In this document: positions 3,171 through 35,686 of the stretch, piece by piece
Layout: each line of letters opens with the position of its first letter
Numbering within the stretch: position 1 is the first letter of the stretch
Origin: an uncultured Candidatus Saccharibacteria bacterium
GTDB taxonomy: Bacteria > Patescibacteriota > Minisyncoccia > Phycocordibacterales > PCTT01
NCBI GenBank assembly: GCA_964566505.1
Contig: CAZMIM010000002.1
Span: forward strand, 46,529 to 110,528
Length of the DNA: 64,000 nucleotides
Reading direction: 5' to 3'
Notes under the pieces: model-generated
What the model was told of the DNA's origin: nothing
Seen by the model: only the letters and a program-made list of their open reading frames with translations
The model's database searches: none
Position numbers and translations under genes: made by a program

Positions 3171-3788
3171 CTAAATACCTATCTTATTTAGTACTTTCTC
3201 ATGTGGAAACTCAAGAACATCTCGCACAAGCTTGTCATATACATTCATACGATACTGAAACTCATCAGTAGAAAATACTGCATACCTTAGCTCCTTCCCT
3301 ATCTCTGATTCTATCTTTCGAACGACCCTATCGAGAGCACCCTTCTTTATTTTGTCTCCCACAATAAGAAGGTCTACTCGTGAATCTGGAATCTGAAGAA
3401 ATACTCCTGAGATAATAACAAGCTTTGGAGCACCTGCTGGCTTAATACGGTCCAAAACCTCGAGTCTTTCATTTCGTCTTCCTTGTATAAGAAGCTTATG
3501 AAGCCCTGAAAGATACGGAAATGTTTTATCAAGCATGAAGCCATTTGTCTTTTGCTTCTTTGTTACCACTTCTTTTCCTTTCTTTTTCTTTACCTCTTTA
3601 TAAAATACCTTTGGTTTTATAAGACCAACCGATTTAAGCATGTTTACAACACGGCGTACCATATCAGTCTTCACCTGAGTTTTCTTTGAAATCATTTTGA
3701 TGTCATATGCTGTGCCCGGGTTAGACATAAAAAGTCGCATTATCTTCACTCGCGATACTCCACCAAATAGTTTTGCTAGTATTTCCAT
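3171..3788 (-). CDS. Hypothetical DNA-binding protein (winged-helix-like N-terminus, nucleotidyltransferase-like C-terminus)
   Basis: 205-aa ORF. The N-terminal segment VSRVKIMRLF...YDIKMISKKTQV looks wHTH-like, followed by a basic linker and a C-terminal DLLIVGDKI segment. This is a family-level guess only. Confidence 0.4.
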   Translation of the reverse strand: MEILAKLFGGVSRVKIMRLFMSNPGTAYDIKMISKKTQVKTDMVRRVVNMLKSVGLIKPKVFYKEVKKKKGKEVVTKKQKTNGFMLDKTFPYLSGLHKLLIQGRRNERLEVLDRIKPAGAPKLVIISGVFLQIPDSRVDLLIVGDKIKKGALDRVVRKIESEIGKELRYAVFSTDEFQYRMNVYDKLVRDVLEFPHEKVLNKIGI

Positions 3789-3912
3789 CCCGATAGTGAT
3801 AGGAACCGCTTATTAAGCGTTTCCGAAAATTAGTTTGTAAATTAAGTTTTTCATAAGACTTTAACTTATCCCGATATTTTGAGTATTCAAAAATAACTCA
3901 ATCACTATCGGG
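3789..3912 (-). promoter_or_regulatory. Structured 5' element X1: a 12-bp long-range helix whose 3' strand abuts the start codon
   Basis: CCCGATAGTGAT (3789-3800) pairs perfectly with ATCACTATCGGG (3901-3912). It encloses two hairpins and an internal near-copy, ATCCCGATA. The gene's ATG (3788) is directly adjacent. It is homologous in layout to 32930-33071. Confidence 0.45.
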
Positions 3913-3986
3913 ACCATATGTTTTGAGTATACACACGAGCACAGTGCTCTAAAAGTAGACAGCGTGTCTATATCAGTTTTTAATTC

Positions 3987-4012
3987 AAAAACCGCCCATT
4001 TGGGCGGTTTTT
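3987..4012. terminator. Bidirectional intrinsic terminator downstream of rplL
   Basis: AAAAA-CCGCCC-ATTT-GGGCGG-TTTTT. Confidence 0.65.
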
Positions 4013-4059
4013 GTCTGGTCGGTGTGTAGTGTAGTTCTCAAATTACCCAACCTACAGGA

Positions 4060-4584: not shown

Positions 4585-5073
4585 TTATGCCTTACTCTCA
4601 GCGATTGCATTGATTACTCGTGCAAAACCGCTAATTGGTGAATTAATAATCTGTACAAATTGTCCTCGTAGAACATCAAGACCTGGAATCTGTGCAATCT
4701 CTGTGATTTCCTCTTTTGAAAGAAGTTTCTTTTCAAATACTCCACCGACTAGTGCAATATTTTCCTTGTACTTCTTTTGGAACTCATAGATTTCGCGAGC
4801 AGAACCAGTTTCATCATCTGAGTATGCAATAGCAATCTCTCCATCAAGTGCTGGTGCCTCTCCTTCAAATGAAGTGTCAGCGAGCGCTCGGTGAATCAAA
4901 CTCTTCTTTGCAACATAGTATGATACTCCGCTATCTCGAAGCGCACCTCGCATAGCAGTTGTGTCATCTACATTAAGTCCGTGAAAGTTCACAAACGCAA
5001 TAGAAGTAGCATTCTCAAATATATCTTTGAGTTTTGAAACAATCTGTTCTTTTTTCTCTTTTGTAATTGCCAT
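4585..5073 (-). CDS. rplJ: 50S ribosomal protein L10
   Basis: 162-aa ORF with L10 similarity (VNFHGLNVDDTTAMRGALRDSGVSYYVAKKSL). It directly precedes rplL. Confidence 0.9.
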   Translation of the reverse strand: MAITKEKKEQIVSKLKDIFENATSIAFVNFHGLNVDDTTAMRGALRDSGVSYYVAKKSLIHRALADTSFEGEAPALDGEIAIAYSDDETGSAREIYEFQKKYKENIALVGGVFEKKLLSKEEITEIAQIPGLDVLRGQFVQIINSPISGFARVINAIAESKA

Positions 5074-5103
5074 AAATAATTTCTTAATGAGCGAAGTGAA
5101 TTT

Positions 5104-5157
5104 AGAAATTATTTATCCGCCTAAGTTTCCGAAGGAAAATTTGTGCGGATTTTCTAA
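5104..5157 (-). promoter_or_regulatory. rplJ 5'-UTR hairpin, second member of the motif shared with the rpsJ leader
   Basis: The minus strand reads AATCCGCACA..(inner hairpin TTTCC-TTCG-GGAAA)..TTAGGCGGATAAATAATTTCTAA. The outer helix and tail are conserved; the inner hairpin differs in sequence but still pairs. Confidence 0.5.
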
Positions 5158-5177
5158 AACACCTTTCACTCGAAATT

Positions 5178-32499: not shown

Positions 32500-32929
32500 T
32501 GTGTGTATATGTAATTTCGCGTGCTGTTTCATTTAAATGAGCAAAAGAAAGACAGTGCGCATTCTCTGGTATTGCATCTTTTATCTTTTCTGGCCATTCA
32601 ATAAATATAATTGTTTTGGAATCTAGTAATAATTTATCCCAACCAAGACTTTTGATGTCTTCTGAGTCCTCAAGACGATAAGCGTCTATGTGAACAAGCT
32701 TGTCAAAAGGCTTGTTTGTGAGAGGGTATGTTTTTTGTATTACAAATGTGGGGCTTGTTATAGGTTCTTTGATACCAAAATATGTTCCCACGGATTGAGT
32801 AAAAGTAGTTTTTCCTGAGCCTAAATCACCTGAAAGCGCTACAACAGTTGCACCCTCTTTTGGCTGTAGTTTTTCACAAAAATCTTGTGCAAATTCTTCT
32901 ATATCCTCTCGTTCTATCACCTTTTTCAT
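32492..32929 (-). CDS. tsaE: tRNA t6A biosynthesis ATPase TsaE (YjeE)
   Basis: GDLGSGKTTFTQ P-loop, SPTF, and HIDAYRL. 145 aa. Confidence 0.85.
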   Translation of the reverse strand: MKKVIEREDIEEFAQDFCEKLQPKEGATVVALSGDLGSGKTTFTQSVGTYFGIKEPITSPTFVIQKTYPLTNKPFDKLVHIDAYRLEDSEDIKSLGWDKLLLDSKTIIFIEWPEKIKDAIPENAHCLSFAHLNETAREITYTHNG

Positions 32930-33071
32930 CCCGTAGTAAAAAATTAGTTTGATTAATTAGACAAGTTGGTTTCGACACAACCAAGTCTATCTCTCATTTC
33001 CCGTAAGTATGTCTAATTAATCTCTGTTGAAGTAGTTAGCACTACTTCAACGAACTAATTTATACTACGGG
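32930..33071 (-). promoter_or_regulatory. Structured 5' element X2: three-way junction whose outer helix abuts the tsaE start codon
   Basis: P1 is CCCGTAGTA..AAATTAGTT (32930-32949) with AACTAATTT.TACTACGGG (33053-33071). P2 is a perfect 13 bp, GATTAATTAGACA/TGTCTAATTAATC. P3 is a perfect 10 bp, GTTGAAGTAG/CTACTTCAAC. There is an internal near-copy, CCCGTAAGTA. Confidence 0.5.
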
Positions 33072-33099
33072 ATTCATACATAAATAGTACCACGAAAAG

Positions 33100-35543: not shown

Positions 35544-35686
35544 TCGAACACATAAACCTCTAAGTAATGCTAGATGCAAGAAATAGCCCTATGTTTTCTA
35601 AGGATAGAGTCAGTTTATATATAAAAAATATACATACCCAATTCGTCCTCGAAAGCCATAAATTACTTAGAGGTTTATATGTTTGA
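35544..35686. repeat. 143-nt element closed by a 25-bp inverted repeat (structured RNA or miniature inverted-repeat element)
   Basis: TCGAACACATAAACCTCTAAGTAAT (35544-35568) pairs with ATTACTTAGAGGTTTATATGTTTGA (35662-35686). There are 23 Watson-Crick pairs, including an uninterrupted 15 bp. Confidence 0.4.

Follow-up and report, generated by a model that had tools for sequence, protein, structure and literature searches.

Two genes in a 64-kb stretch of contig CAZMIM010000002.1 (hereafter the window, the whole stretch of DNA that was analysed) begin with an ATG that abuts the end of a long-range helix, and the explanation that best fits this helix is an inserted mobile element whose terminal inverted repeats form it, rather than a dedicated leader RNA. 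We refer to the element at the start of a winged-helix gene as X1, to its sister at the start of tsaE as X2, and to the loci with which they were compared by L-numbers. In our judgement X1 is very probably a non-autonomous transposable element resembling MITEs (transposable elements of the miniature inverted-repeat type), lodged in the first codons of a normally leaderless gene. We assign it this identity because it combines inverted repeats, target duplications, small size and absence of coding capacity with insertion polymorphism among relatives. Integration duplicates four (sometimes five) target bases starting with T, usually TG (TGAA, TGGA, TGTT, TAAA). Where the target TG lies in a start codon, the last base of the element (A, in some copies G) and the duplicated TG rebuild an ATG or GTG with the reading frame intact, and the original ATG is retained, its spacing from the -10 box unchanged. 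Alongside this mobile origin, the helix could have been exapted for a secondary effect on translation.

Filled and empty sites at orthologous genes

The comparison set comprised 92 non-redundant loci encoding the winged-helix protein, whose closest protein relatives come from the candidate phyla radiation (CPR), namely Candidatus Campbellbacteria and other Paceibacterota. At 57 of these loci, all leaderless, the start codon and the conserved N-terminus are kept and TANNNT stands 4-10 nt before the ATG. An X1-type element abuts the ATG at seven (L014, L018, L019, L020, L033, L090 and L092) and at L083 an element lies directly after the -10 box. Element-bearing orthologues are spread over at least five separate clades of the protein tree. 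Filled and empty sites can be compared directly in L020 and L001, which share 89% amino acid identity and differ by a clean 134-nt insertion, TGGA included, between flanks that are about 85-95% identical: the empty site reads ...CAAAA-TGGA-TACAC... and the filled site ...CAAAA-TGGA-[CCCGG...CAGGG]-TGGA-TACAC.... The element is likewise present in L033 and absent from L035 at 96% amino acid identity, and L014 and L017 form a further presence/absence pair. We also considered, and rejected, an internal promoter reading into the gene, since no element-bearing orthologue has TANNNT in the last 20 nt before its ATG and the promoter-like site lies only upstream of the element.

These comparisons do not describe a conserved cis-acting leader, which an earlier note on this DNA had implied: 57 of the 92 orthologues keep the start codon and lack any such helix. 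The CGGG-ATG junction, which the same note proposed to look for in leaders of related genomes, does recur at L014, L018, L019, L033, L090 and L092, because the same site has been hit repeatedly, but is absent from most of the 92 loci. Nor is the picture that of a riboswitch, with a majority of loci leaderless, seven carrying the element, interiors that cannot be aligned and no Rfam match. At gathering thresholds Rfam found only tRNAs in the whole window, and a permissive scan of 3700-4050 gave weak matches only, mostly over the rplL terminator.

Other structured sequences occur near the start of the same gene. About 220 nt upstream of the winged helix-turn-helix (wHTH) start, L001 and L020 share a leader at about 95% identity as against about 80% in the coding sequence, which suggests that these Campbellbacteria-like genomes may have a functional structured leader there. 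In other clades the leader is a long hairpin of tandem 7-8 nt units (CCCTAAA, AAGCTAAC, GCTAACC, TTCGTAG or TTCCTAA); it stops 0-5 nt short of the ATG and is preceded by a promoter that is strongly conserved, TTGTCAACTCCTAGCGCAA...GCTACAAT. Such hairpins were seen in L058, L061, L064, L065, L074, L086, L089, L037, L040, L043 and L001 (in all of them about 100 nt before the wHTH start), and in L089 (13.4-13.6 kb) a variable loop of the 23S rRNA is taken up by a hairpin with the same style of repeats. The start of the wHTH gene seems to attract several kinds of helix-forming insert.

Structure of X1 and X2

Features of X1, its surroundings and X2 are collected in Table 1; coordinates are those of the window, both element-bearing genes lie on the minus strand, and sequences are given in the mRNA sense.

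Table 1. Coordinates of X1, its parts and surroundings, and X2
Feature	Position	Strand	Remarks
X1, miniature element, 126 nt	3788-3913	-	perfect 13-nt inverted repeat; same architecture in relatives, with filled/empty pairs
5' terminal inverted repeat of X1, TCCCGATAGTGAT (helix strand S1)	3901-3913	-	family consensus NCCCGTTAGA
Hairpin 1, UGAGU...ACUCA (TGAGT...ACTCA)	3880-3900	-	RNA fold and sequence
Internal copy of the 3' end, TATCGGGA (S2)	3869-3876	-	locally pairable with S1
A/U-rich block, TAATTTACAAACTAATTTT	3826-3844	-	common to X1 and X2, same orientation
Hairpin 2, GGAAACGC..GCGGUUCC	3802-3824	-	RNA fold; sequence GGAAACGCTTAATAAGCGGTTCC
3' terminal inverted repeat of X1, ATCACTATCGGGA (S3)	3788-3800	-	last base is the A of the start codon
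Winged-helix gene, 205 aa	3171-3788	-	ATG abutting X1 is the true start
Left copy of direct repeat, TGG	3914-3916	-	right copy 3785-3787, followed by A
Original start codon, upstream of X1	3915-3917	-	opens an 18-aa upstream reading frame (3917-3861, MVPIVIELFLNTQNIGIS)
-10 box TATACT, preceded by TGTG	3926-3931	-	8 nt before the upstream ATG; leaderless-promoter geometry
-35-like TTTAGA	3953-3948	-	upstream of the -10 box TATACT
Terminator hairpin of the upstream rplL gene	3986-4013	-	upstream limit of the transcription unit
X2, 144 nt, at the tsaE start codon (tsaE-polA operon)	32929-33072	-	layout as in X1

The arms of X1 are perfect, 13 nt each and 100 nt apart. A helix between 3789-3800 and 3901-3912 had been recognised in the earlier note, and it is real; one further pair belongs to it, T at 3913 with A at 3788, which we count within the element, so that the A of the start codon (3788-3786) is also the last base of X1. 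Only one of 2000 dinucleotide shuffles of the 360-nt region contained a perfect inverted repeat as long. The RNA fold that includes the terminal helix has -35.5 kcal/mol (z = -5.5) and was equalled by none of 200 shuffles; in this fold the terminal helix runs for 13 bp and then branches. Both hairpins that the note had placed inside the element were recovered in the fold and sequence, hairpin 2 sharing its outer stem with L014 and differing in its inner stem. The internal near-copy of the helix strand is present too, and is in fact exact (ATCCCGATA at 3868-3876); counterparts of S2 occur in X2, L014, L090, L092, L106, L112 and L114. The element contains an in-frame stop. CGGGATG occurs four times in the window, at gene starts only for X1 and X2.

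X2 is flanked by perfect TGAA direct repeats (33073-33076 and 32925-32928); the ATG upstream of it (33077-33075) opens a 5-aa upstream open reading frame (uORF), and the -10 box is TACTAT at 33089-33084. The region reads TGG-TACTAT, TTATGT, ATGAA, TCCCGTAGTA ... TACTACGGGA, the final A starting ATG-AAA, and the tsaE orthologues L117 and L118 have leaderless geometry and no element. X1 and X2, although in one genome, have in common only their ends, one 19-nt block and the internal repeat. The shared block was correctly spotted in the earlier note: it contains a 12-nt exact match found nowhere else in the window, and 19 of 20 nt match with one indel. The assignment of X1 and X2 to one family is supported, and the observation that their terminal helices differ in sequence yet stay complementary is confirmed as covariation with pairing kept.

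What had been missed is a second ATG directly 5' of each element, a direct repeat of the first bases of the gene behind the -10 box: TATACT-CAAAACAT-ATGG-T[CCCG...] at X1 and TACTAT-TTATGT-ATGAA-T[CCCG...] at X2. In the mRNA sense the order at X1 is the rplL stop, the terminator, the -35-like sequence, TGTG-TATACT, CAAAACAT, ATG (3917-3915), G, X1, and ATG-GAA-ATA-CTA. The spacing from TATACT to the upstream ATG is also seen at empty orthologous sites, and the sole promoter-like site in the region lies upstream of the repeats and outside them. The direct repeat of X1 (TGG) is one base shorter than the TGGA repeat at the orthologous gene in relatives. The ATG at 3788 is taken as the true start of the winged-helix gene because the first 20 residues of its product are conserved in orthologues; the product itself gives only weak matches to wHTH.

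The public annotation of this gene (window 3171-3728, database protein P0001) begins at Met21 and gives a protein of 185 aa that omits the 20 conserved residues. It skips the true start; presumably this start follows X1 and lacks a Shine-Dalgarno (SD) sequence.

The element family

Ends were aligned and pairs counted over 19 family members, which yields the end consensus NCCCGTTAGA...TCTAACGGGN' and an element of the form N-CCCG...CGGG-N'. The X1 end TCCCGATAGT matches eight of the first ten consensus positions; the X2 end TCCCGTAGTA matches the first six and needs a one-base gap to align its TAG. Across 13 terminal pairs 93.5% of positions are paired and nine pairs vary in both partners; at the outermost position UA occurs in 12 members, CG in six and AU in one, and no member is unpaired there. 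Flanking repeats are perfect at X2 (TGAA), L089 (TGTT), L090 and L020 (both TGGA), L051 (TAAA), L106 and L112 (both TGAA) and L114 (TGAAA), and match in three of four bases at L014 and L092. The simplest reading of these sequences would be a duplication of 4 bp, sometimes 5 bp, of the form T(G/A)NN, with the variable outermost pair belonging to the element. We also considered a 5-bp duplication around an asymmetric element and favour it less, since 4 bp plus a variable outer pair needs fewer assumptions and leaves L020 mismatch-free, although the two are not fully separable.

Elements of the family measure 60-171 nt, contain no transposase gene, and have as their sole reading frames uORFs of 5-27 aa. 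The rebuilt start codon is ATG in most copies and GTG in L020 and L113. Interiors are almost unalignable, and the few blocks held in common have the same orientation relative to the gene. Most members repeat their 3' end internally, at a distance from the 5' end of 25-45 nt, or of about 60 nt in X2, and X2, L089, L092 and L020 fold into near-continuous helices of about 20 bp. Helix mismatches are too few to reveal a preference for G-U over A-C that would distinguish selection on RNA from selection on DNA, and no bias was seen.

Copies also occur at genes unrelated to the winged-helix gene. One stands at the start codon of a membrane-protein gene in L089, behind TATACT-TTAGCT-ATGTT, and another lies in a 5' region, 10 nt before an ATG, in L051. 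In L037 a copy occupies a variable loop of the 23S rRNA, a position at which helical expansions of other kinds occur in other CPR genomes. An exact-pattern scan of a phage collection returned 14 distinct elements with the ends CCCGTTAGA...TCTAACGGG, a bare number that we estimate to be near chance level for a collection of that size; we therefore limit the phage evidence to copies with duplications and start-codon junctions. Five of the 14 supply the first start-codon base of an open reading frame (ORF) of 73-640 aa, among them a portal protein, three are bracketed by perfect ATGAA or ATGAAA repeats, and a further two lie directly upstream of an SD. At start codons the phage copies have AGGAGG or GGGAGG 9-11 nt before the rebuilt ATG, whereas the CPR copies, whose host is poor in SD, have none. 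The window holds two strongly diverged copies, and one Mu-like phage contig holds at least three.

A Mu-type transposase (DDE_2, Mu-transpos_C) is encoded on that contig, IMGVR_UViG_3300038429_000794 (29,962 nt; L098, L113 and L116), and the elements or hairpins whose ends are CCCGTTAGA/TCTAACGGG number at least three there. Hairpins of 26-50 nt with the family ends and almost no interior were seen at L022 2151-2200, L049 1497-1541, L066 10992-11019 and L098 2496-2585, an example being CCCCGTTAGAGATTCACCTCTAACGGGG. They may be collapsed elements or a REP-like relative.

Start sites in this genome

TANNNT stands 5-9 nt before the ATG in 23 of 55 window genes, compared with 10% of random ATGs, and an SD-like 4-mer precedes only four of the 55, which is the background level; many genes overlap stop to start. 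Starts poor in SD and rich in -10 boxes imply that operon-first genes look leaderless and that internal genes start without SD. An X1-type insertion is a natural experiment in initiation, in which a leaderless gene has been given a 129-nt structured leader with no SD and must still be expressed. This applies to tsaE-polA and to one gene that is conserved throughout the group.

Between the rpsJ and rplJ leaders (698-790 and 5071-5163, minus strand) about 95 nt are shared at 85% identity, ...GAATCCGCAC...TAAGGCGGATAAATAATYTCTAA...GAARAATTATTT-ATG. Their helix AAAUAAUYUC/GAARAUUAUUU extends into the start codon's AU, and ATCCGC/GCGGAT could form an alternative pairing that overlaps it. It represents another type of start-codon-abutting helix, unrelated to that of X1 and X2.

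Expression of genes behind the element, and competing explanations

If X1 and X2 are insertions of this kind, transcription would start as before, at the upstream ATG, and the RNA would run from a uORF through the 5' inverted repeat to a stop in the element (18 aa in X1, 5 aa in X2) and on to the gene. The long-range helix at the start codon would then be the two transposon ends paired in RNA. At equilibrium the two ends of both X1 and X2 are predicted to pair and the start codon to be buried. In folds of successively longer prefixes S1 pairs first with the internal copy S2, giving a local hairpin of -18.6 kcal/mol in X1 and similar ones in L014, L090, L092, L020, L106, L112 and L114; with the first 30 nt blocked, as by a ribosome on the uORF, the 3' strand is freed. 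The helix could accordingly be kept open in two ways, either by the local hairpin of 5' end and internal copy forming first during transcription or by ribosomes on the 5'-terminal upstream AUG unwinding the 5' strand. Through one or both of these the gene would remain expressed, with initiation at the rebuilt AUG requiring no SD sequence in this organism. We favour a view in which the helix may be mostly a by-product that element and host keep from forming.

A different account of expression, which fits a mobile origin and competes only with the model just described, is that the element behaves as an intervening sequence whose terminal helix is cut by RNase III, removing uORF and element and leaving a near-leaderless mRNA. 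It is our main alternative, though on balance an unlikely one. A variable loop of the 23S rRNA harbours a copy with the family ends (L037), short uncharacterised insertions in CPR rRNA have been proposed as RNase III-type intervening sequences (PMC11270868), Correia elements are cut at their inverted repeats (PMC10969869), many members (X2, L089, L092, L020) form near-continuous helices of about 20 bp, and the 5' end of an mRNA is the only place where excision without religation restores function. Against this, the helix of X1 extends for only 13 bp before branching, staggered cuts within it would leave no 5'-terminal AUG, and no RNase III signature was found in the 64-kb window, which is a part of the genome only. 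Were cleavage to occur, it would explain mRNA 5' ends and rRNA loops as tolerated sites. More distant still, and in our view improbable, is a selected cis-regulatory leader in which S1 pairs either with S2, leaving the start free, or with S3, burying it, the choice being set possibly by uORF translation, temperature or a factor, and the leader being either an exapted mobile element or itself primary. The three-part scheme of S1, S2 and S3 does recur in CPR and phage copies, both window copies keep perfect helices despite diverged interiors, common internal blocks are all oriented alike relative to the gene, and other clades of the winged-helix gene carry unrelated long hairpin leaders ending at the ATG. 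Yet a leader is missing from most orthologues, the element can be present in one and absent from the other of two very close relatives, the genes behind it (wHTH, tsaE, membrane protein, phage portal protein) are unrelated, there is neither a conserved ligand-binding core nor an Rfam match, and pairing of the ends is expected for any inverted-repeat element.

We give next to no credence to two further explanations. Perfect short inverted repeats flanking about 100 bp beside a gene start could bound an invertible segment acting as a phase-variable promoter switch, but the sole promoter-like site is outside the repeats, every copy whose interior can be recognised is oriented alike relative to its gene, target duplications and empty sites indicate insertion and not inversion, and no recombinase was found among the window ORFs tested; we rejected membership of the invertible promoter segments on the first two of these grounds. 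Programmed bypassing, with ribosomes starting at the upstream AUG and hopping the folded element to the downstream AUG (compare phage T4 gene 60 and the mitochondrial byp elements), would make use of the matched take-off and landing sequences (ATGAA...ATGAA) around a compact hairpin-rich insert, and of the SD-like sequence before the landing site in phage copies. The same facts follow more simply, however, from direct initiation at the rebuilt start codon; the downstream codon is GTG in L020 and L113, and a hop of 60-145 nt straight after initiation, without nascent peptide, has no precedent.

Several observations weigh against the MITE-like identity we prefer, or against the expression model attached to it. 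The direct repeat of X1 itself is imperfect (ATGG-T versus A-TGGA; three bases, or one base lost), the rRNA copy in L037 is flanked by a 2-base repeat only, and several phage copies lie away from start codons without clear duplication. X1 and X2 would appear to be old or to derive from different sublineages, yet both helices are perfect, which hints at selection on pairing, whether of RNA or of DNA ends. The minimum-energy fold sequesters the start codon, and the ways of opening the helix proposed above are putative. Neither the window nor about 0.9 Mb of related loci yielded a transposase or a full-length element with these ends. Inverted-repeat pairs spaced 0.3-3.5 kb apart, taken over all loci, included no autonomous partner, and the tested ORFs included no transposase except a MuA-like one, whose known ends differ. 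Mobilisation is therefore deduced only from target duplications and from insertion polymorphism.

Special targeting is not needed to explain why copies are in excess at start codons: these would be over-represented among the copies that survive, because a start codon that the element restores is one of the few T(G/A)NN sites of a compact genome to tolerate insertion. True targeting is also possible. Landing on the TG of a start codon and rebuilding the codon is a simple way for a transposon to persist in a genome that has hardly any spare DNA. As a tentative extension, to which we give somewhat less than even weight, the elements may form a widespread, undescribed class of CPR and phage miniature transposons adapted to translation starts, which would duplicate T(G/A)NN, supply the first codon base, carry the initiation needs of the host (an SD in phages; an A/U-rich tract and no SD in these bacteria) and keep the start codon unburied by means of an internal decoy copy of the end, some copies perhaps serving as uORF-coupled switches or RNase III sites.

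Comparison with known elements

The closest parallels come from other small non-coding elements. Correia (NEMIS) elements, Neisseria MITEs of 100-155 bp, likewise have terminal inverted repeats and a target duplication, and are often found in 5' regions and co-transcribed with genes (PMC10969869, PMC2649163); their paired ends form an RNA helix that affects expression, with documented RNase III cleavage at the repeats (PMC10969869; PMC2649163). They differ in duplicating TA, in having 26-bp repeats of fixed sequence and in being able to create promoters, whereas the X1 family duplicates 4-5 bp (TRRA-like) and conserves only about the first nine end bases, and X1 sits on the start codon, supplies its first base and has no promoter evident inside. 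Rickettsia palindromic elements are also palindromic miniatures that survive in genes of compact genomes through their place and mode of landing (PMC10969869). Unlike X1, which has an in-frame stop and stays outside the protein by rebuilding the start downstream, they are in frame and translated within it. RNase III-type intervening sequences of 23S rRNA, and the short unclassified insertions reported in CPR rRNA genes (PMC11270868), resemble X1 as helical inserts of about 100 nt whose flanks stay functional, but have been described in rRNA only and without target duplications, while here the main sites are mRNA 5' ends. REP and REPIN sequences, mobilised by RAYT, are short hairpin-forming repeats, and several of our loci contain small hairpins that end like the X1 family (CCCGTTAGAGG..CCTCTAACGGG); we nevertheless rejected membership, since REPINs have a conserved GTAG head and no target duplication, and the X1 family has clear duplications and no RAYT was seen. 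Integron attC sites were rejected as well, the GTT/AAC parts lying outside the helix here in a mirror image of attC.

IS1380 elements produce target duplications of 4-5 bp, and the IS1380/piggyBac superfamily excises precisely, which would fit the patchy distribution seen here. The likeness to X1, in ends that start with CC(C) and in a 4-bp target duplication, is a loose fit and a lead only, as the present elements have an extra variable base outside CCCG and a TRRA rather than TTAA target. piggyBac repeats start with CCC and duplicate four bases, and IS1380 is the prokaryotic relative (PMC10813416).

MITEs are a known kind; what appears to be new is that these elements occupy start codons and rebuild them, that they occur in CPR bacteria and phages, and that one is linked to an rRNA insertion. 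Full-text searches, covering a review on prokaryotic MITEs and a survey of prokaryotic and viral ones, both from 2024, found no report of MITEs in these bacteria or of insertion at start codons, and searches with the end sequences as strings returned unrelated primers only. An explanation of 'structured leaders' of CPR genomes as mobile DNA bears on annotation and on riboswitch mining, and would link short unexplained CPR rRNA insertions to a mobile family.

Other repeats in the window

Two further long inverted repeats were noted. Between the pilB-like and ruvB genes, upstream of the ruvB -10 box, a 127-nt segment (35552-35678) is bounded by a perfect 17-nt repeat (ATAAACCTCTAAGTAAT / ATTACTTAGAGGTTTAT) with no clear target duplication; its arms hold CTCTAAG/CTTAGAG, recalling the family ends in the opposite arrangement. 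A perfect 16-nt repeat at 19793-19900 (TTCGCTCGTTTTGGTA / TACCAAAACGAGCGAA), 108 nt end to end, lies in an alpha/beta-hydrolase coding sequence, and comparison with the L117 orthologue ruled out an in-frame insertion there. Finally, two similar fragments resembling the 3' half of a tRNA (...GGGRGAAACTAGAGTTTCYCCCGACCCC..GTTCGAWTCC), at 14824-14877 and 21635-21685, lie inverted beside the intact tRNA-Arg (14930-15002) and tRNA-Ser (21496-21581), respectively, and are possibly scars of integrated elements.

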